The notes under the pieces were generated by a model. That model was not told the origin of the DNA. It searched no databases and saw nothing but the letters and a program-made list of their open reading frames with translations. A program made the position numbers and the translations under genes. From Candidatus Fervidifonticultor secundus (GTDB taxonomy: Bacteria > Sysuimicrobiota > Sysuimicrobiia > Sysuimicrobiales > Humicultoraceae), in assembly GCA_031459385.1 (NCBI GenBank), contig JAVKIP010000007.1, positions 89,387 to 153,386 on the forward strand: a stretch of DNA of 64,000 nt, read 5' to 3'. This document shows positions 56,294 to 64,000 of the stretch, piece by piece (within the stretch, counting starts at the first letter, position 1; each line of letters begins with the position of its first letter).

Positions 56294-57124
56294 TTGGGCA
56301 CTGCCCTGGTGGCGTTCCTGCAAGAAGCGGGCAGCGACGTCGTGCCCCTCGACCACGAGGCCGTGGAGTGCACCGACCCTGCGTCGGTGGACGCTGCCCT
56401 GGCCCGGAGCGCGCCCGATGTGGTGGTGAACTGCGCCGCGTTCGTGCGCGTCGACGAGTGCGAGGACCGGCCTGATGAGGCGTTACGTGTGAACGCGCTG
56501 GGCGCGCTGTACGTGGCCCGCGCCGCCGCCAGCCTGGACGCCCGCTGCGTCTACATCAGCAGCGACTACGTCTTCGACGGGCGCCGTCCGCCGCCGGCGG
56601 CCTACGCTGAGACCGATGCGCCTGCCCCGGTCAACGTGTACGGCGCCTCGAAGCTGGCCGGCGAGCACCTGGTGGCGCAGACATGTCCCGACGCGCTGAT
56701 CGTCCGCACCGCCAGCCTCTTCGGCGGGCGCGGCGCGCGCGGCAAAGGGGGGAACTTCGTCACGGCGATCCTGACGCGGGCGCGCGCCGGGGAGCCGCTG
56801 CGGGTCGTCGACGACGTGTGGATGACGCCCACCTACGCGCCCGACGCGGCGTGGGCGCTGGTCAGGCTGCTGGCCGGCGGCGCGACCGGCATCGTGCACG
56901 TCGCCAATGCCGGTGCGTGCACGTGGTACACTTTTGCCCGCCACGCGCTGGCCCTGGCCGGCGTCGACGCCGCCGTCGAACCCGTGCCGGCCGCGACCTA
57001 CCCCATGCGGGCCAGGCGTCCGACCAACTCGGCGCTGGATACTGCGCGCGCGGCTGGATTGCTGGGCGGCCCACTGCGCACGTGGGAGGACGCGCTGGCC
57101 GAGTACGTGCGCGGGCTGGCCTGA
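56294..57124 (+). pseudogene. rmlD: dTDP-4-dehydrorhamnose reductase lacking its N-terminal GxxGQ start
   Basis: [47 protein letters not shown]; begins out of frame right after the rmlA fragment. Confidence 0.8.
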
Positions 57125-57159
57125 CCCGGCGCAGCCGGCGCATTCGCCCTCCCCTCACG

Positions 57160-57184
57160 AGGAGTCGGTTTGGCGACGTTGAAT
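57160..57184 (+). promoter_or_regulatory. Sigma-H-like promoter AGGA-N17-GAAT
   Basis: GAGGA gtcggtttggcgacgtt GAATA upstream of the regulator gene. Confidence 0.5.
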
Positions 57185-57224
57185 AGGTGCCACAACTTCC
57201 ATTTGTCACGCAACTTCACGACAG

Positions 57225-58376
57225 ATGCGGATCGCGCTGGCGGATCGCCAGATATACGTCGAGGGCCGGCGGCTGCACGTCAGTCCCAAGTTCTTCCAGC
57301 TGTATTGCCGGCTGGCCCTCGAGCGGGCCCAGGGCCGGTTGGAGTTTCTGGCCTTGCGCGAGATTCACCGTCTACCGGCCTGGAGCCGCGGGAGCCTGGC
57401 CAGTGTTGGCAAGGAAGTCAGCCGGCACGCGCGGCGGATGCGCGCAGCCGGGTGGGACCTGCTGGAGTCGCCGCCGCGGAAGGCCACGCACCTAGTGCGC
57501 CTGCAGCCCAGGGTCGTGCAGGTCGAGTTCGACCGGCCGCTGGCCGAGGTACGTGCCTGGCTCGGGCTCGACCTCCGGGCGGCTGGCGGCGACCCCCACC
57601 AGGCTGAACGCGCGTTCGAACTGGCGGCCGCGCTGGCCGCCGCGCGGGCGGCGCTCGAGCGTGGAGCCCTGCACCAGGCTCGGGCCGCGCTGGCGCGCGC
57701 CGAGCAGGCCGGACCGGACGACGTGCGCGACCGCGTGCTGGTGGCCCTGTGGTGGTCACGGCTGCTCGACCGGGAAGGGCACGACGCCGAGGCCCTGGCG
57801 CGGGCATCCGAAGCCGAGGCGCTGTGCGCCGCCAGCGGCGTCGACCACCTGACGTGCGCGCGAGTGCAGATCTGGATCGGCCATCTGGGCTGGCGCTCCG
57901 GGCGGGCCAACCTGCTGGCCGCAGCCCGCGCGCACTACCGCTGTGCCCAGGACCTCCTGGGCGCAGCGCCGCACTTCGCCGAGCTGGCGGAGATTGCCAT
58001 CGGACTGGGCCACGTAGCACGCCTCGAGCGTGACTGGCCGTCGGCGACTGCGTACCTCCGGGGGGCGCTGCGCTACGCGACCGCCGACGGGTGGGCTTGG
58101 GGCATCCAGGCAGCCGCGTACTACCTGGGCCTGGTGTGCGCCGAGCATGCCGAACATGTGGAAGACCCCGGCTCCCGCTCGCGGCTCTACCGCGAGGCGC
58201 GCGACTGGGCGGAACGGTGCATCCGCCTGGCCGGCGAGGCTGGCGTGGACGCCGCCACAGCCGAGGCGGAAAGCCTGCTCGCCGACCTGCGGGCAAAACT
58301 GGGCCAGCCGGCCAGCCCAGGCCCGGTAGGTGAGCACAACAGGCGCCGGTCGGTCGTACCGAGCGTCAGGCCGTAG
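57225..58376 (+). CDS. Putative regulator: OmpR-like winged-helix N-terminus plus TPR-like repeats
   Basis: RQIYVEGRRLHVSPKFFQLYCRL...VSRHARRM resembles Trans_reg_C; helical repeats (IGLGHVARL, YYLGLV). Confidence 0.6.
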   Translation: MRIALADRQIYVEGRRLHVSPKFFQLYCRLALERAQGRLEFLALREIHRLPAWSRGSLASVGKEVSRHARRMRAAGWDLLESPPRKATHLVRLQPRVVQVEFDRPLAEVRAWLGLDLRAAGGDPHQAERAFELAAALAAARAALERGALHQARAALARAEQAGPDDVRDRVLVALWWSRLLDREGHDAEALARASEAEALCAASGVDHLTCARVQIWIGHLGWRSGRANLLAAARAHYRCAQDLLGAAPHFAELAEIAIGLGHVARLERDWPSATAYLRGALRYATADGWAWGIQAAAYYLGLVCAEHAEHVEDPGSRSRLYREARDWAERCIRLAGEAGVDAATAEAESLLADLRAKLGQPASPGPVGEHNRRRSVVPSVRP

Positions 58377-58594
58377 ACCGGAGGGCGGTACGGCCTGGCA
58401 CAGGGTTCCCCGTAGAAATTCAGAGGAATCTGAGAATCAAAGAATGTGAAATTTTGTGTCAAGTCAAGAGACCCTGGGGAAGGAAAGTTGTGCCACAATA
58501 TTATATAGAGACACACTGCCGGACTGCACAGGCTGGGCTGATAGATCTGGCAGGGCGATCAGCGCGTGGGTCGCGGCTTCGGGACCGTCAAGGG

Positions 58595-59146
58595 ATGGCT
58601 GCGCCGCTTCCTCACATCCCACCGCCTGACGGGGCCATAGTCCAGGATTGCGCGCGGTGGTTTGTCGTGCAGACCAGGCCGCGCGCCGAGGATCGGGCGT
58701 GCGAGTCCCTGCGGCTGCGGGCGGTCGACACGTACCTGCCTCGCCTGCTGGTCTGGCGGCGCCATGGCTCGCGGCGGTGGCAGGCGCTCGAGCCGCTGTT
58801 CCCCGGCTACCTGTTCTGTCGCTTCCCGCCACGTTCCCAGGACATCGCGCGCGTGCAGTGGACGCCCGGCGTACGCCGCCTGCTGGGTGACGACGACGGC
58901 CCCATCCCGGTCGACCCCGAGATCGTCGCCTACCTGCAACGGCGCGAGGCCGGCACCGGGTACATCAGTGCCGGGAGGCCGCTGGCGCCGGGCAACCGCG
59001 TGCGGTTCCGCGGCGGGCCGTTCGCGCTGCTGGAGGGTATCATCGAGCGGCCGGCCGGTCGGGCCGACCGCGTGCGGGTGCTGCTGACGTTGATGAACAC
59101 CGCCGTAGTCGTCGAGGCCGACGCGGCGGATCTGGAACGCTGCTGA
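58595..59146 (+). CDS. NusG paralogue (RfaH/UpxY/LoaP-type transcription antiterminator)
   Basis: WFVVQTRPRAE, YLPRL, EPLFPGYLF, TPGVRRLL, KOW GNRVRFRGGPFALLEG. Confidence 0.92.
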   Translation: MAAPLPHIPPPDGAIVQDCARWFVVQTRPRAEDRACESLRLRAVDTYLPRLLVWRRHGSRRWQALEPLFPGYLFCRFPPRSQDIARVQWTPGVRRLLGDDDGPIPVDPEIVAYLQRREAGTGYISAGRPLAPGNRVRFRGGPFALLEGIIERPAGRADRVRVLLTLMNTAVVVEADAADLERC

Positions 59147-59337
59147 CCTGATCGCGCCCGCGCGGCCGCATGCCGGCAGGTGCGGCGGCGGGCGCCACGG
59201 GCAGCGCAGGCCGCTACGGTGGTGCGGCCGAAGCGTGCGCAACTCCTGGTGGCTTTGCGGTACGTGGCGTGTACCGCACCGGCGGAGCCATGCGCGGCGG
59301 GTCGTGCCCCGCGTGTCCCTCACCGTGGAGGCCCACA

Positions 59338-59565
59338 ATGAGCGCACCGTTGCCCGCGCACGACCGGTCGCCGGCGCACCCCGGGGGCTCCCGCGCCGAG
59401 CCGGCCCTCCGGCCGTGCGAGGCGAAACTGCTGACCTGCATCCGCAACCACTGGGCGCTTGACTTCGGCACACGGGAAGTCCGGCTGGTCATCGAGTACC
59501 AGGACGGCAAGCCGGTGCTCATCCGCGTGACCGGGAACATCGTCAGGGAAGAGAAGCTGCGGTAG
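59338..59565 (+). CDS. Small protein (75 aa), DUF2292/YezD-like
   Basis: GGAGG SD; EAKLLTCIR...LDFG...LVIEYQDGKPVLIRV...EEKL resembles DUF2292. Confidence 0.6.
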   Translation: MSAPLPAHDRSPAHPGGSRAEPALRPCEAKLLTCIRNHWALDFGTREVRLVIEYQDGKPVLIRVTGNIVREEKLR

Positions 59566-59600
59566 CACGCTGAGGGTCGCCACAACCGCATAGCCAGACA

Positions 59601-59705
59601 GACGGGTCCCTGACCCGACGATGCGGGAGGGGGCCGTCCGCGGTGCACACCACGCCCGGGCCAGGATCGGCGCGGTGTGCCTGCGGACGGCCCCTTCCAT
59701 TTTTT
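59601..59705 (+). terminator. Leader terminator with an overlapping alternative (antiterminator) hairpin upstream of wza
   Basis: 18-bp stem 59626-59643/59681-59698 followed by A-T6; alternative hairpin 59601-59638 uses the same 5' arm. Confidence 0.75.
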
Positions 59706-59766
59706 CCGCGCCGCGTGCAGCCGCCAGCGTGCGGCGGCGTGGCGGCGCGTCGAGGAGGTCACCGGC

Positions 59767-61002
59767 ATGACGCGGCATGCGCTGGTTGCTTTGCTGGCCG
59801 TCACTTTGGCGGGCGCAGCGCCCCTGGGCGCGCAGCCCGTGCCGCCGTCACCTGCGGCGCCCGGCACACCGGCGGCGCCGCCCGGCGGGGCGGCCTACGT
59901 GCTTGGCCCCGAGGACGTGCTGGAGATCTCGGTCTGGGGCTACCCCGACCTTACGCGCGTGGTGGCCGTGCTGCCCGACGGGCGCATCAGCGTGCCGCTG
60001 GTGGGCGCGGTGATAGCCGCCGGCCTCACCGTCGAGCAGCTGACCCGCGCGCTGGTGCGCGGCTTTGCCCGCTACATCCGCGACCCGCAGGTCACCGTGA
60101 TCGTCAAGGAGTTCCGCCGCGTACGCGCCGCGGTGCTGGGCCAGGTGCTCAAGCCCGGCACCTACGCGCTGCCACCTGGCGCGCGCCTGCTCGACCTGCT
60201 GTCGGCGGCCGGCGGCGTGACCGAGCTGGCCTCGCTGAGCGATGCCCAGCTGCTGCTGGGGCCAGGCCGGCCGGCCGCGGTCGTAGACCTCGAGCGCGTC
60301 CTGGCCGGCGACCCGGAGGCCAACGTGGCACTGACCGGCGGCGAGACGCTGGTGGTGCGTGAGGACCTGATCAACGTCGTCAACGTTGCAGGCGAGGTGG
60401 CCAGGCCTGGCCGTTACCGGCTCAAGGGCGAGATGCGCGTGCTCGACGTGCTGCTGCTGGCCGGAGGGCTCACCGAGAAGGCGTCGGTCACCGAGGCGCG
60501 CCTGGTGCGCGGCGGCCAGGCGCTGCCGCTGGGGCTCGACGCGCTGCTTCTGCGCCAGGAGATGAGCCGCAACATCCGCCTGGCGCCCGGTGACGCGCTG
60601 ATGGTGCCCGAAGAGACCAACAACAAGATCTACGTCGTCGGCGACGTGAACCACCCCGGCGTCTTCCCCCTCAAGGGCGACGTCACGCTCCTGCAGGCAG
60701 TGGCCCTGGCCGGCGGGCCGGTGCAGCGCGGGCCGGCCACGGCCAGGACGGTCCACATCGTGCGCCGCGGCGGCGTCGAACGCGCGGTCGTGGCCGGCGC
60801 GGGGCGCGAGGTGAAGGTGGAGGCGCTGCCCGGCGGCCGCGCGCTCATCAGCGCCGACCTGCAGGCTCTGCTGCGTCACAGCGCCACCCGCGACATCGCC
60901 GTGCAGCCCGGCGACGTGATCGTGGTGCCCCAGTCAGGCCTGACAGGCCTGCAGGTCGCCCTGAACATCCTGGCCGGGCTGGTGTGGCCGTTCCGGTGGT
61001 AG
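59767..61002 (+). CDS. wza: Polysaccharide export protein (Poly_export + SLBB domains)
   Basis: Signal peptide, YVLGPEDVLEISVWG, PDGRISVPLVG, three SLBB repeats (V.GEV..PG.Y); SD GAGGAGG. Confidence 0.9.
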   Translation: MTRHALVALLAVTLAGAAPLGAQPVPPSPAAPGTPAAPPGGAAYVLGPEDVLEISVWGYPDLTRVVAVLPDGRISVPLVGAVIAAGLTVEQLTRALVRGFARYIRDPQVTVIVKEFRRVRAAVLGQVLKPGTYALPPGARLLDLLSAAGGVTELASLSDAQLLLGPGRPAAVVDLERVLAGDPEANVALTGGETLVVREDLINVVNVAGEVARPGRYRLKGEMRVLDVLLLAGGLTEKASVTEARLVRGGQALPLGLDALLLRQEMSRNIRLAPGDALMVPEETNNKIYVVGDVNHPGVFPLKGDVTLLQAVALAGGPVQRGPATARTVHIVRRGGVERAVVAGAGREVKVEALPGGRALISADLQALLRHSATRDIAVQPGDVIVVPQSGLTGLQVALNILAGLVWPFRW

Positions 61003-61113
61003 GATCAGTGGGGTGGCGCACCGTCTGGCCGTCTGGTGGTAGCATGGCGAACGCGGGCCCGGGGAGTGGCGGCGTCGGTCCGGTGCGCCGACGGCGCGGC
61101 CCGCGGTGAGCCC

Positions 61114-61488
61114 ATGCCGATCTACGAGTACCGCTGCGCCGACTGCCGGGCGCGCTACACCGTGTTCTTCCTGCCGCCCGAGCAGCCTGAGCCGCGCTGC
61201 CGCCGCTGCGGCAGCACCAACGCCGTGCGCCTGATGTCGCGCTTTGCCACCGTGCGGTCCGACGAGGCCCGCCTCGACGCCCTGGCCGATGACCCCGACC
61301 TCACCCGCTTCGACGAGTCCGACCCGCGCAGCGTGGCGCGGTGGATGAAGCGCCTGGGCCGCGAGATGGGCGACGACCTGGGCCCCGAGTTCGACGAGGC
61401 GGTCGAGAAACTGGAAGCTGGCGGTGGCCTCGACGACGCCACCGGGGGAACGACAGGCGACGACCTGTCGCCTCCCACCGACCTGTAA
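61114..61488 (+). CDS. FmdB-like zinc-ribbon protein with acidic C-terminal domain
   Basis: MPIYEYRCADC...CRRCGS..RLMSRF, DPRSVARWMKRLGREMGDDLGPEF. Confidence 0.85.
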   Translation: MPIYEYRCADCRARYTVFFLPPEQPEPRCRRCGSTNAVRLMSRFATVRSDEARLDALADDPDLTRFDESDPRSVARWMKRLGREMGDDLGPEFDEAVEKLEAGGGLDDATGGTTGDDLSPPTDL

Positions 61489-61562
61489 CCGGTAGCGACC
61501 GAACACACGCGCTGCGGCGGCAACAGCCGCGTGGGCATGCCAGTCACGCCCCTACGCCCGCA

Positions 61563-63038
61563 GTGACTTCGAGCGCGTCACCATCCAGAGCGCTGTCCTC
61601 CAGAGCGCTGCTCTCCTGGGCGCTTGCCGCCTGCTGCGCCGGACTGGTGGCCGGCGCGCTGGCCGCTGTCTGCGCGCAGGGTGCCGCGGCGGCCCCCGGT
61701 CCCAACGCCGTCGTGCCCGCCGACCACTGGGCCTACGGCGCGCTCTACCGCCTGGCCGCCTTCGGGGTGGCGCCGCTGTGGGCGGCCTCGGCGCGGCCGC
61801 TGCCGCGGCTCGAGGTGGCACGCATGGTCGCCGAGGCGCTAGAGCGCGTCGGCGCAACCGACGGGGTGTCGCGCGCCGGCGCTTTGGCCGCCGCATCTGA
61901 CGCCGTGCGCACCGACCTCGACGCCCTGCGCGCCGAGTTCGCCGCCGAGCTGCGCCTGCTGGCCGCCGGGCGCGACGCCCGACCGGATCCGATGGCCGTC
62001 GGGGCCGCCGCCACCGCCCGCGTCGTCAGCGGCGCGCCCCCGCGCTTCCTCCGCCATGACGGCGGCGGAGTCGAGCTCAGCCGCCTCTACCTGGCCGGGC
62101 GCGTGGGCGATGTGGCCGTCCAGGCCGGCCGCGACGCCCTCTGGTGGGGCCCGGGCTCGCGCGGCGCGTTCCTGCTCTCCGACAACGCCGGTCCCCTGGA
62201 CGCGCTCACGCTGACGCTGACCTCGGGCCGCTTCCGTGCGGTGAAGATGGTAGCGCCTCTGGCAGACGGCGCACGCTACCTCTACGGCCTGCGGGTCGAC
62301 TGGCAGGCCCGCGACGACCTGCGCGTGGGCTTCGGCGAGGTCATGGTGGGCACAGGCGGGCTCGAGCCGCTCTACGCGCTGAACGTCGTGCCGGGGGTGG
62401 CCTACGCGATCGCCACCCGCGTGCGCGCACCGGTCCGCAACGACAACTACAACTTCACCGTCGACCTCGACTGGCGGCCGCGGCCGGGCGTGGTGGCTTA
62501 CGGCGAGCTCTACGTCGACGACCTGGTACTCACGGCAGACAACCCCTTCCCGCACCGCCTGGGCGGCACGGTCGGCCTCTACCTGGCCGACCCCTTCGGC
62601 GATGGCCGCACCGGCGTGCGCGTCGAGCACAGCCGCGCCACCAACTGGATCTACGCCACGCCCGACGCGGCCGCTGCCTACATCCGCGCCGGCAGGGCGC
62701 TGGGCCACTGGTGCGCCCCCGACTGCGAACTGTGGTCGGTGACCGTCACCCGCACCTTCTCGCCCGCCGCCGCGGTCCTGGTAGGCTATGACCTCATCCG
62801 CAAGGGGGAAGGCGTGCTGGGCCAGACGTGGACCGACCCCGACGACGCGCGCCGGCGCTACTACCTGTCGGGCGTCATCGAGACCTCTCACGCCCTGCGC
62901 GCGGGGATCACGCGCGCGTGGGGCGAGGCCCGCGCCGCCGCTACGGTGGTGTGGACCGCGTCGACCAACGCCGGGCACGTGGCCGGGGCCACCCGGCAGG
63001 GATGGTTCGTCCTGGTGGAGGCGTCCTATGGATTCTGA
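61563..63038 (+). CDS. wzi: Capsule assembly Wzi-family outer-membrane protein (start uncertain)
   Basis: GRDALWWGPGSRGAFLLSDNA, YGELYVDD, LGHW; SLH-like DHWAYGAL; C-terminal YGF. Confidence 0.75.
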   Translation: MTSSASPSRALSSRALLSWALAACCAGLVAGALAAVCAQGAAAAPGPNAVVPADHWAYGALYRLAAFGVAPLWAASARPLPRLEVARMVAEALERVGATDGVSRAGALAAASDAVRTDLDALRAEFAAELRLLAAGRDARPDPMAVGAAATARVVSGAPPRFLRHDGGGVELSRLYLAGRVGDVAVQAGRDALWWGPGSRGAFLLSDNAGPLDALTLTLTSGRFRAVKMVAPLADGARYLYGLRVDWQARDDLRVGFGEVMVGTGGLEPLYALNVVPGVAYAIATRVRAPVRNDNYNFTVDLDWRPRPGVVAYGELYVDDLVLTADNPFPHRLGGTVGLYLADPFGDGRTGVRVEHSRATNWIYATPDAAAAYIRAGRALGHWCAPDCELWSVTVTRTFSPAAAVLVGYDLIRKGEGVLGQTWTDPDDARRRYYLSGVIETSHALRAGITRAWGEARAAATVVWTASTNAGHVAGATRQGWFVLVEASYGF

Positions 63039-64000
63039 ACCGCGCACTCCCGCAGAGGAGCCCCGCGCGCCGGATCGGACATGGGCCGGCTCGACCGCGC
63101 CGCCGTCCGGGCGCGAGTCCGACGAGCCCGGGCTGCGCGACTACCTGGCAGTGCTGCGCCGCCGCTGGTACCTGCCGGCGGTCACCACGGTCATCGCCCT
63201 GGCCGTGGCCCTGGGGTTCAGCCTAGGCGCCGCGCCAGTCTACCGCGGCCAGGCCACCGTGGTGGTCGACCGCAGCGGGGCGTCGTTCGCCATGACCGCC
63301 GACCTCACCGGTATCAGCCAGCAGGCCTTCGTCGACACGCTGGCCGAACTGGTGAAGAGTCGCGCCGTGGCCGCGCAGGCCCTCGAGCGCCTGGGCACCC
63401 CTGAGGACGAGCGGCCCGCCCTGCTGGCAGCCCTCCAGCGCGGCCTGAAGGTGCGCCGCGTGCGCAACGCCGACCTGATCGTCATCGAGGCCGAAGGACC
63501 CACGCCGGCCGCCGCCGCCTACTACACCAACGCCGTGGCCGAGGCGCTGCTGGCCTGGCACGTCGACTCGCGCCGCCAGCAGGCCTCCGCCGGCCGCCGC
63601 TTCATCGAAGAGCAGGTGACGGCCGTGGGCAACGAGCTGCGCGCCGCCGAAGACGCCCTGGCCCGCTACAAGGTCGAAGGCGGGCAGGTCTCGCTCTCAG
63701 AGCAGAGCACCCTGGCCGTGACCAAGCTGGCCGAGTTCGAGGCGCAGCGCCGCGCCGCCGCCGCTGAGCGCCGGGGGGTCGAGGCCAGCCTGCGCGAGGC
63801 CCGCGCCGCCCTGGCCCGCCAGGCACCCACGGTGCCCGCATCGTTCATCGAGGGCGAAGACCCTGTCGTGGCCCAGATCCGCACCGACCTGGCCAAACTG
63901 GAACTGGAGCTGGTCGGCCTGCAGCGCCAGTTCACCGACCGTCATCCCCAGGTGCTGGCCACGAAGGCCCGCATCGAGGAAGCCAAGGCGCGCCTGCGCC
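63028..64000 (+). CDS. wzc: Polysaccharide co-polymerase Wzc/GumC, 5' part (runs off window)
   Basis: LRDYLAVLRRRW, PVYRGQATV, FIEEQV, FTDRHPQV. Confidence 0.88.
   Translation, partial: MDSEPRTPAEEPRAPDRTWAGSTAPPSGRESDEPGLRDYLAVLRRRWYLPAVTTVIALAVALGFSLGAAPVYRGQATVVVDRSGASFAMTADLTGISQQAFVDTLAELVKSRAVAAQALERLGTPEDERPALLAALQRGLKVRRVRNADLIVIEAEGPTPAAAAYYTNAVAEALLAWHVDSRRQQASAGRRFIEEQVTAVGNELRAAEDALARYKVEGGQVSLSEQSTLAVTKLAEFEAQRRAAAAERRGVEASLREARAALARQAPTVPASFIEGEDPVVAQIRTDLAKLELELVGLQRQFTDRHPQVLATKARIEEAKARLR

Follow-up and report, generated by a model that had tools for sequence, protein, structure and literature searches.

We analyzed a 64,000-nucleotide (nt) stretch of the genome of the uncultured hot-spring bacterium Candidatus Fervidifonticultor secundus (contig JAVKIP010000007.1; hereafter, the window), in which a gene for a specialized NusG paralogue, a gene for a protein of 75 amino acids (aa), and a leader RNA element, R1, precede the exopolysaccharide genes wza, wzi, and wzc. 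The three parts are a conserved, co-inherited module ahead of wza, and two mutually exclusive folds of its leader RNA are conserved in all 22 sequences compared. With a probability of about 0.55, the module is a self-encoded antitermination gate heading the exopolysaccharide operon wza-wzi-wzc. A sequence-only reading of this DNA had proposed a three-part module for read-through into such an operon; it was right in outline, as regards the linkage of the parts and the exclusive folds, but its labeling of the small protein as DUF2292-like was wrong.

Every gene described at the locus lies on the + strand. The elements of the module are as follows.

58595-59146, + strand: specialized NusG paralogue, 183 aa, with an NGN domain and a C-terminal KOW-like beta domain
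59327-59331, + strand: Shine–Dalgarno sequence GGAGG, read from the sequence, with the ATG of the small gene 6 nt further on
59338-59565, + strand: small protein gene, 75 aa, with a variable N-terminus and a conserved core (residues 24-75)
59576-59711, + strand: leader RNA element R1, the entire covariance-model match (69.2 bits, E 5e-17)
59583-59593, + strand: conserved CAACCGCATAG motif in the 5' part of R1, from alignments of related leaders
59605-59635, + strand: candidate antiterminator hairpin of near-invariant sequence, with the inner stem at 59614-59627
59626-59698, + strand: long terminator hairpin, from folding and base-pair conservation; its 5' base (59626-59635) is common to the candidate antiterminator
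59700-59705, + strand: U-tract, TTTTTT in the sequence, one base past the terminator stem
59707-59749, + strand: third hairpin of the predicted minimum-energy leader structure, after the terminator and before GAGGAGG (59752-59758), the ribosome-binding site of wza

Conservation of the Module

The small gene was found at 25 loci, about 18 of which are distinct (L006/L022 and L023/L024 are duplicates, and some metagenome loci equal genome loci). A NusG paralogue gene was located directly upstream of it at 8 of 8 loci from species genomes and at all 14 metagenome loci with upstream DNA; locus L020 starts at the small gene and hence has no upstream DNA. At two of those 22 loci, the paralogue is partial: a KOW remnant in L008 and residues 90-183 in L025, which is a contig with a coverage of 1. 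R1 was present at 23 of the 25 loci with the small gene; one of the R1-less loci, L025, ends 26 nt past the gene. Among 94 genomes of the phylum, the small gene was encoded in nine, and a strong R1 match was found in exactly those nine; one further genome gave a weak R1 match of 27 bits. First-look filters scored part of the candidates behind these tallies, which include the unpublished genomes G016 and G024, both negative; none of the conclusions depends on this pair by itself. The co-occurrence of a NusG paralogue, the small gene, and wza in other genomes, which the sequence-only reading had proposed to look for, was thus found.

In a genome of the same genus (G001), the module is present with R1, and the two proteins are 75% and 87% identical to those of the window. 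It is followed there by wza, the zinc-ribbon gene, wzi, wzc, and five GT4 glycosyltransferase genes. A methyltransferase, a flippase, two epimerase/dehydratases, and a family-4 glycosyltransferase are encoded further on, and this entire run of more than 20 kb is co-directional.

At three loci (L013, L023, and L024), R1 lies immediately before wza though it is separated from the small gene by a zinc-ribbon gene and by opposite-strand inserts, Uma2-like and VapBC-like as named by sequence motif; in L013, two R1 copies flank the insertion. Because R1 is still in front of wza despite these insertions, it belongs with the downstream operon. At two loci (L006 and L018), R1 precedes a GAF/HD-GYP gene and not wza. 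The small gene and R1 behave as a unit, since they are tandemly duplicated together in L008 and are found with two paralogue clades (see below).

Several side observations were made at these loci. A remnant, CTGAGRTAG, is kept before the R1 copies that have become detached from the small gene (L004, two copies in L013, and L023). Insertions are frequent in the interval that separates the regulator genes from R1/wza (L013:5601-7093, L018:1069-2188, L034:1984-2709, and L035:4231-4977): the inserts, again named by motif, include Uma2-like nuclease ORFs (open reading frames), a VapBC-like pair with an R1 copy on either side, and a HepT/MNT-like pair accompanied by a duplicated paralogue and small-gene start. 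In L008 (5061-5136 and 5678-5884), a KOW-like C-terminus lies beside a tRNA gene, and two copies of the small gene with R1 remain; the locus is either decaying or misassembled.

Leader RNA Element R1

The intergenic leader between the small gene and wza is 201 nt long (59566-59766), and R1 within it is a conserved leader RNA of ~105-135 nt with an invariant 5' part of ~55 nt. The order of elements in related loci is CAACYGMATAG, the near-invariant GTCCCTGACCC-R-AYGAGA-Y-GGGAGGGGRCCG, a long stem, CGGYCCCCTTC, and a T-rich tail. The covariance model, built from 21 copies, gave 22 full-length matches at E<1e-14 from 20 sources; the only copy in the source genome (3.3 Mb) is that of the window. 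Rfam 15 produced at E<=1 a sole match in 57000-61000, M23 at 59165-59200, which is at chance level (22.8 vs 41.2 bits).

The 3' part of R1 has the features of an intrinsic terminator: a G+C-rich stem (59626-59698), an A, and six U residues at 59700-59705. The predicted energy of the hairpin was -66.6 kcal/mol (z = -6.3), with none of 200 shuffled sequences equally stable, and U-rich tails follow the terminator stem in relatives as well. In the model-based alignment of R1, 98.7% of the terminator-base cells were paired, four compensatory pairs were present, and none of 500 shuffles reached the observed covariation; in the upper stem, the sequence is wholly different between loci, and pairing is always kept. 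A simple terminator scan of 58200-60000 gave no matches because the loop and the stem of this hairpin exceed the limits of the scan.

The candidate antiterminator (59605-59635) is a 31-nt hairpin, GGUCCCU-GA-CCCG-ACGAUG-CGGG-A-GGGGGCC, whose 6-nt loop reads AYGAGA in the pattern of the related loci. Folded alone, it took the same shape in 22 of 22 sequences, with energies from -13.7 to -19.9 kcal/mol, and 97.5% of its cells were paired, compared with 47-71% for slid partners. Its inner pair 42/49 covaries (GC in 12 sequences, AU in 6, and GU in 4), and its pyrimidine strand varies only by C-to-U changes at positions facing G, with pairing kept. As most positions are invariant, covariation cannot prove this hairpin; compatibility and conservation speak for it instead.

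Positions 59626-59635 are common to both structures, as the 3' strand of the 31-nt hairpin and the 5' foot of the terminator. When the RNA was truncated before the 3' arm of the terminator, the 31-nt hairpin was the minimum-energy fold in 16 of 22 sequences, formed partially in five, and did not form in one. In the full-length RNA, the minimum-energy fold contained the terminator base in all 22 sequences and the outer pairs of the 31-nt hairpin in none, which bears out the earlier claim of a leader with two mutually exclusive folds.

A further stem at the 5' end closes the CAACYGMAUAG sequence; it has 7 bp and compensatory changes in L016 and L017, is not recognizable in the window and several other loci, and is not part of the R1 model. 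Two other uses of the leader were considered and rejected. Attenuation by a ribosome stopping at the small ORF does not agree with a stop-to-hairpin distance that ranges from ~20 to ~190 nt, nor with the position of R1 kilobases away from the small gene in L013, L023, and L024. The GGGAGG of the terminator arm was dismissed as a ribosome-binding site of a leader peptide, the stem sequence downstream of it not being conserved.

Small Protein Family

The 75-aa ORF led by a Shine–Dalgarno sequence, as it had been described from the sequence, proved to be conserved: a word-indexed search yielded 50 homologues with 57-90% identity, and a HMMER profile search of 1.84 billion cluster representatives gave 18 clusters at E<=0.001, including one spurious match to a repeat protein. 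The core of 52 residues (24-75) reads LRxCEAKLLxxIRNHWALDFGTREVRLVIEYQDGxPVLIRVTxNxVxEEKLR, and 20 columns of its alignment are invariant, including five glutamates. Over 23 loci, the small gene had 2460, 1765, and 5838 differences at codon positions 1, 2, and 3, respectively, and 4509 synonymous against 3007 non-synonymous codon differences; owing to this third-position and synonymous excess, it is the protein, besides the RNA, that is under selection. Judged by this coding-type substitution pattern, 59338-59565 is a real conserved protein gene under purifying selection that belongs to an undescribed family.

Neither Pfam nor NCBIfam matched the small protein, even at E<=10, and a search of PDB sequences with its profile gave no matches at E<=10. 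Structure prediction, proposed earlier for this ORF, was informative as to secondary structure: the AF2 model (pLDDT 66, core 70-85) consists of a helix (26-42) followed by three strands. It did not yield a relative by fold: Foldseek found no match in PDB at E<=0.001, the best VIA-align wide match (PAS-like domains, Z 5.0) was inside the noise range of the tool, and the best ESM Atlas matches (0.82-0.83, unnamed viral clusters) were below scores reached by shuffled proteins.

The label "DUF2292-like", given to the protein in the sequence-only reading, did not hold. No match to the DUF2292 model, PF10055, was obtained at E<=10 with the 51 members of the small-protein family or with the complete genome translated in all six frames, nor at E<=1 with 10 distant members. 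The same model detects true DUF2292 genes (~1e-13) in 6 of the 94 genomes of the phylum; these belong to another family of the phylum and do not lie beside NusG paralogues. Alignment of the small-protein family by hhalign against a shallow DUF2292 profile of five sequences gave E=0.028 and a probability of 1.8% over 38 columns with 32% identity. DUF2292/YezD proteins are of similar size and have in common with the small protein the order of a helix ending in FG, a strand, QDG, a strand, and EK.R. The small protein thus appears to resemble DUF2292 in layout; membership in that family is not supported.

NusG Paralogue

The product of 58595-59146 is a member of the NusG family by its gathering score: the NGN domain of Pfam NusG (PF02357) was recognized at residues 21-112 with 64.3 bits against a cut-off of 22.2 (1.5e-17), in agreement with the earlier identification. 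The best-scoring named subfamily was RfaH (TIGR01955), with 90.7 bits, below the cut-off of 144.5. Other models also scored below their cut-offs: RfaH NF006534 (64.4 bits, cut-off 124), UpxY NF033644 (58.1 bits, cut-off 100), LoaP NF033641 (51.8 bits, cut-off 125), and the NusG equivalog (38.9 bits, cut-off 135.7). Only two NusG-family genes were found in the genome, namely the paralogue and the housekeeping NusG. The AF2 model of the paralogue (20-row alignment, pLDDT 81.5) contains the NGN domain and an all-beta part at residues 135-182; the C-terminal domain is accordingly modeled as all-beta, a prediction that would be compatible with fold switching too. The protein also has a conserved arginine-rich loop, RRRHGSRRW.

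Other specialized paralogues (42-59% identity) occur in the phylum without the small gene. Those of L037 and L038 are followed straight by wza-wzc, with a different leader and with neither the small gene nor R1. In L034 and L035, a Uma2-like ORF replaces the small gene, and R1 had no match in their genomes. A maximum-likelihood tree was computed for 25 paralogues and the housekeeping NusG; its deep branches are unresolved, and its root is only the long NusG branch. The L015 and L019 paralogues, which have the small gene and R1, group in it with those of L037 and L038, which lack both, with a support of 97/100; the small gene and R1 are therefore found with two paralogue lineages.

In G001 (L037, G001:C1:1002145-1002636) and G047 (L038, G047:C2), this second specialized paralogue heads a second wza-wzc locus. 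As the second paralogue has neither the small gene nor R1, some relatives run two differently gated polysaccharide loci.

Proposed Mechanism and Alternative Explanations

The sequence of events under an antitermination gate would be the following. Transcription would start upstream of the paralogue (58595), yield both proteins, and then enter the R1 leader. By default, the hairpin at 59626-59698 with its A and six U residues would stop transcription before wza, at 59700-59705. The 31-nt hairpin (59605-59635), being made first, would sequester ten bases of the terminator foot; if a protein held this hairpin, the terminator would stay incomplete and RNA polymerase would proceed into wza. The small protein would most likely be the clamp on the 31-nt hairpin, and the paralogue would load onto the polymerase in the leader and keep it processive through the long operon. 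We assign the hairpin to the small protein and not to the paralogue because of the duplication of the small gene together with R1, the presence of two paralogue lineages, and the higher conservation of the small protein (L015/L019 and the window share 71% identity in the small protein vs 42-44% in the paralogue). Hairpin binding is thus its most likely role, to judge from a distribution that tracks R1 and not any single NusG lineage. The predicted complex of the paralogue and the small protein had a score of 0.00, which bears neither way on binding.

Several points weigh against the gate. The leader is far more stable with the full terminator (-83 kcal/mol) than with the alternative hairpin (-43 kcal/mol); read-through therefore needs a factor or kinetic trapping. 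Six of the 11 pairs of the 31-nt hairpin never vary, and the U-tracts are interrupted in some relatives, e.g., L001 and L003. The small protein resembles no known RNA-binding fold in the Foldseek and VIA-align searches, is mildly basic only (median core isoelectric point 8.8), and has five invariant glutamates. One locus, L005, has both genes and no R1 match within 3 kb, and another, L008, keeps the small gene and R1 with only a KOW remnant of the paralogue. As all the parts share one locus, each genome contributes a single observation of whether they are jointly present or absent, and the related genomes in the tallies are not independent. Among the sequencing runs searched for the window sequence, matches came from four DNA runs of one hot-spring study and from no RNA run.

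It is a tentative and rather doubtful extension of the gate that the small protein is the first of a new class of antiterminators that bind RNA, in which a dimeric alpha+beta mini-domain clamps the 31-nt hairpin and keeps the terminator from being completed, as a portable gate cassette and a two-step switch. If this were true, the cassette would have been joined to two or more NusG-paralogue lineages and set before wza clusters or GAF/HD-GYP genes, and a protein-stabilized local antiterminator would license the loading of a processive NusG paralogue.

Among the alternatives, an unlikely but serious one is that the small protein is an anti-factor of the UpxZ kind, which would bind the NusG paralogue of its own or of a second locus and block its loading, thereby setting a hierarchy or a delay; R1 would then be the recruitment and termination site for the paralogue alone, as in LoaP. 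The gene order, with the small gene after a NusG paralogue, is the same as in upxY-upxZ (PMC11685472), and LoaP is reported to counter NusA-stimulated termination alone, with no further protein (PMC12691694). Several module-bearing relatives hold a second specialized paralogue, which in G001 heads wza-wzc without the small gene, and the small protein has five invariant acidic residues and the paralogue its arginine-rich loop. Against this, the genome (97.6% complete) contains one specialized paralogue, so there is no non-cognate target here for such a role; Pfam UpxZ or another shared family was matched by none of the 51 members at E<=10; and the small gene tracks R1, with which it is duplicated in L008, and not the paralogue lineage.

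Two further readings are less likely than an antitermination gate. R1 might be a ligand-sensing riboswitch with an aptamer in its 5' half and the terminator as the expression platform, the proteins acting elsewhere or on elongation. The invariant 5' half of ~55 nt followed by an antiterminator/terminator pair has the look of such an element; moreover, c-di-GMP-I riboswitches (in 4 of 19 related loci) and linked HD-GYP genes indicate that a nucleotide signal is part of the regulon. We consider this improbable, as no Rfam family matched R1 at E<=1, the conserved part is essentially one hairpin, for which neither a multi-helix junction nor a pseudoknot is supported, and R1 is confined to genomes with the small gene, which a free-standing riboswitch would not need.

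It is just as improbable that R1 is a plain terminator of a two-gene regulatory transcript, with wza having its own promoter and the small protein serving, e.g., in polysaccharide export: the hairpin with six U residues is a textbook intrinsic terminator, and read-through is so far only inferred, but a plain terminator would not keep a 55-nt invariant sequence upstream of its stem across genera, R1 stays with wza behind opposite-strand genes that it cannot terminate, and the 56 nt from R1 to the wza start are partly a hairpin, with no sigma-70-like match in a promoter scan of 58200-60000 (though the promoters of this phylum may differ).

Gene Context and c-di-GMP Connections

The source genome comprises 3.3 Mb in 59 contigs and is placed by its relatives in the candidate phylum CSP1-3/Sysuimicrobiota, close to 'Ca. 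Fervidifonticultor' (PMC11604079). The genes downstream of the module are listed below.

59767-61002, + strand: wza, outer-membrane polysaccharide export (Poly_export 9e-26, SLBB 2.3e-32)
61111-61488, + strand: FmdB-family zinc-ribbon gene between wza and wzi (Zn_ribbon_8 2.8e-11, TIGR02605)
61500-63038, + strand: wzi-like capsule assembly gene with an approximate start, the ORF being open from 61341 (Caps_assemb_Wzi 1.5e-25)
63040-64000, + strand: Wzz/Wzc-type chain-length determinant, N-terminal part (Wzz 8.6e-07, TIGR03007 1.7e-26)

All three genes that had been read from the sequence as wza-wzi-wzc were recognized by profile hidden Markov models; the zinc-ribbon gene between wza and wzi had been overlooked. 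The wza product scored 185.8 bits with TIGR03027 (cut-off 180). The end of the contig is the end of the window, and the Wzz/Wzc gene runs off both.

The FmdB zinc-ribbon gene, of CxxC type, is a frequent fourth member of the cluster; it accompanies the module in the window and in L001-L005, L008, L012, L013, L020, L023, L024, L034, L035, and L039 and is absent from L007, L015, L019, L021, and L026. It is positioned either after wza, as in the window, or 1-4 nt behind the small gene; the latter arrangement was found in L004, L005, L008, L013, L020, L023, and L024. The upstream neighbor of the module, a 383-aa ORF (57225-58376), had no family match (DUF6381 was below the threshold), and nothing corresponding to it adjoins the module in the related loci. 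The spacer between the paralogue and the small gene (59147-59337) has an ordinary structure (z = +0.58). In an A+T-rich patch upstream of the paralogue, a C(A/T)GAGAAT(A/C) or GCAGAATA motif recurs; it is located at 58430-58438 in the window and ~150-200 nt upstream of the paralogue in L001, L003, L004, L006, L012, L015, L018, and L039 and may be part of a promoter.

Cyclic di-GMP (c-di-GMP) is connected with related loci in two ways. Riboswitches of c-di-GMP-I type (or its GGC variant) were found upstream of the paralogue at 4 of 19 related loci with scores above the Rfam gathering values (L014:412-499, L015:2114-2194, L019:4069-4146, and L021:3855-3942); the Rfam scan of 57000-61000 revealed none in the window. 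The module of the riboswitch-bearing relatives thus appears, from these motifs, to be under c-di-GMP control. Genes of the GAF/HD-GYP type (c-di-GMP phosphodiesterase-like) are linked with the module in L018 (3127-4434), L006 (6369-8126), L004 (1130-3250), L013 (1907-4015), and L023 (934-1827), either directly behind R1 (L006 and L018) or directly upstream of the paralogue; no such gene was found in the window. A degenerate R1-like element (35.9 bits) lies before the GAF gene in L004 (971-1078).

Significance and Comparison with Known Systems

The sequence-only reading had known of no description of this combination. This applies to its parts: we failed to find the small-protein family, R1, or the triad described in the open-access full-text literature searched, and the main text of the CSP1-3/Sysuimicrobiota phylum paper contains no NusG or polysaccharide terms. 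It does not apply to the regulatory logic, for which there are precedents in UpxY/UpxZ and LoaP. What is new is the protein family and the RNA motif, and not the antitermination logic.

Specialized NusG paralogues switch on long capsule, toxin, and antibiotic operons. To our knowledge, only RfaH, UpxY, and LoaP have been dissected, each with a different mode of recruitment. The module described here would be a fourth, compact case, from an uncultured phylum (CSP1-3/Sysuimicrobiota). Its cis element is sharply defined as an invariant 31-nt hairpin over a terminator, and its second protein, from an undescribed family, is obligate. At ~1.2 kb, the system is small enough for reconstitution in vitro or in a heterologous host, and it lets the division of labor in antitermination between the paralogue, the accessory protein, and the nascent RNA structure be tested directly. 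If the module functions as proposed, an orthogonal read-through switch for long gene clusters would be possible.

In RfaH, the best-scoring named subfamily of the paralogue, the targets are likewise long envelope-polysaccharide operons. The paralogue differs from it in being encoded in cis, RfaH being a lone gene, and in a C-terminal domain that AF2 predicts to be all-beta, in contrast to the alpha-hairpin of autoinhibited RfaH. The ops consensus of Escherichia coli is GGCGGTAGnnTG; no site in the leader (59566-59766) matched it perfectly or with one mismatch, and with up to two mismatches it had 107 matches in the window vs 105.6 expected, i.e., the chance level. One match of this chance-level type, GCGGTAGC at 59558-59569, with two mismatches, covers the small-gene stop codon; the CTGAGRTAG remnant noted above is, however, also kept before detached R1 copies.

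In the BglG/SacY/LicT systems, an RNA-binding domain of ~55 aa stabilizes a ribonucleic antiterminator (RAT) hairpin of ~30 nt that overlaps the terminator foot, and termination does not occur. The candidate antiterminator of R1 is similar to RAT in being an imperfect hairpin of ~30 nt that overlaps, with its 3' side, the 5' foot of a terminator. The small protein differs from BglG-type proteins in having no CAT RNA-binding domain or other Pfam match and no PRD or sugar-sensing domains, and a NusG paralogue is an added partner here. The CAT RNA-binding domain had no Pfam match in the 51 family members and was not listed in the structural searches with the small-protein model.

In the capsule operons of Bacteroides, the first gene is upxY, which encodes a NusG paralogue, and the next is upxZ, the product of which is reported to bind non-cognate UpxYs (PMC11685472). 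The module shares with them a locus-specific NusG paralogue and a small gene as the first two genes, together with regulation in a leader (PMC11685472; PMC7593976). It differs in that UpxZ acts as an inhibitor of non-cognate UpxYs where a genome has many paralogues, while only one is present here, in that the small-protein family (51 members, searched with all of Pfam-A at E<=10) had no sequence match to UpxZ, and in that the regulated leader of Bacteroides is upstream of upxY, while the conserved element here is downstream of both regulator genes.

With LoaP of Bacillus velezensis, for which a hairpin in the dfn leader RNA is reported to be required and the action to be on a NusA-dependent leader terminator (PMC12691694), the module shares a paralogue next to its target, a small leader hairpin (required in LoaP), and, within that leader, an intrinsic terminator. 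The LoaP hairpin is of UNCG type and separate from the terminator, whereas the one here combines a 6-nt AYGAGA loop with an internal loop and extends into the terminator foot; LoaP acts without an extra protein, whereas a second conserved protein is always present here. On these comparisons, the module is best read as combining the gene order of UpxY/UpxZ with a leader hairpin and terminator of the LoaP/BglG type.

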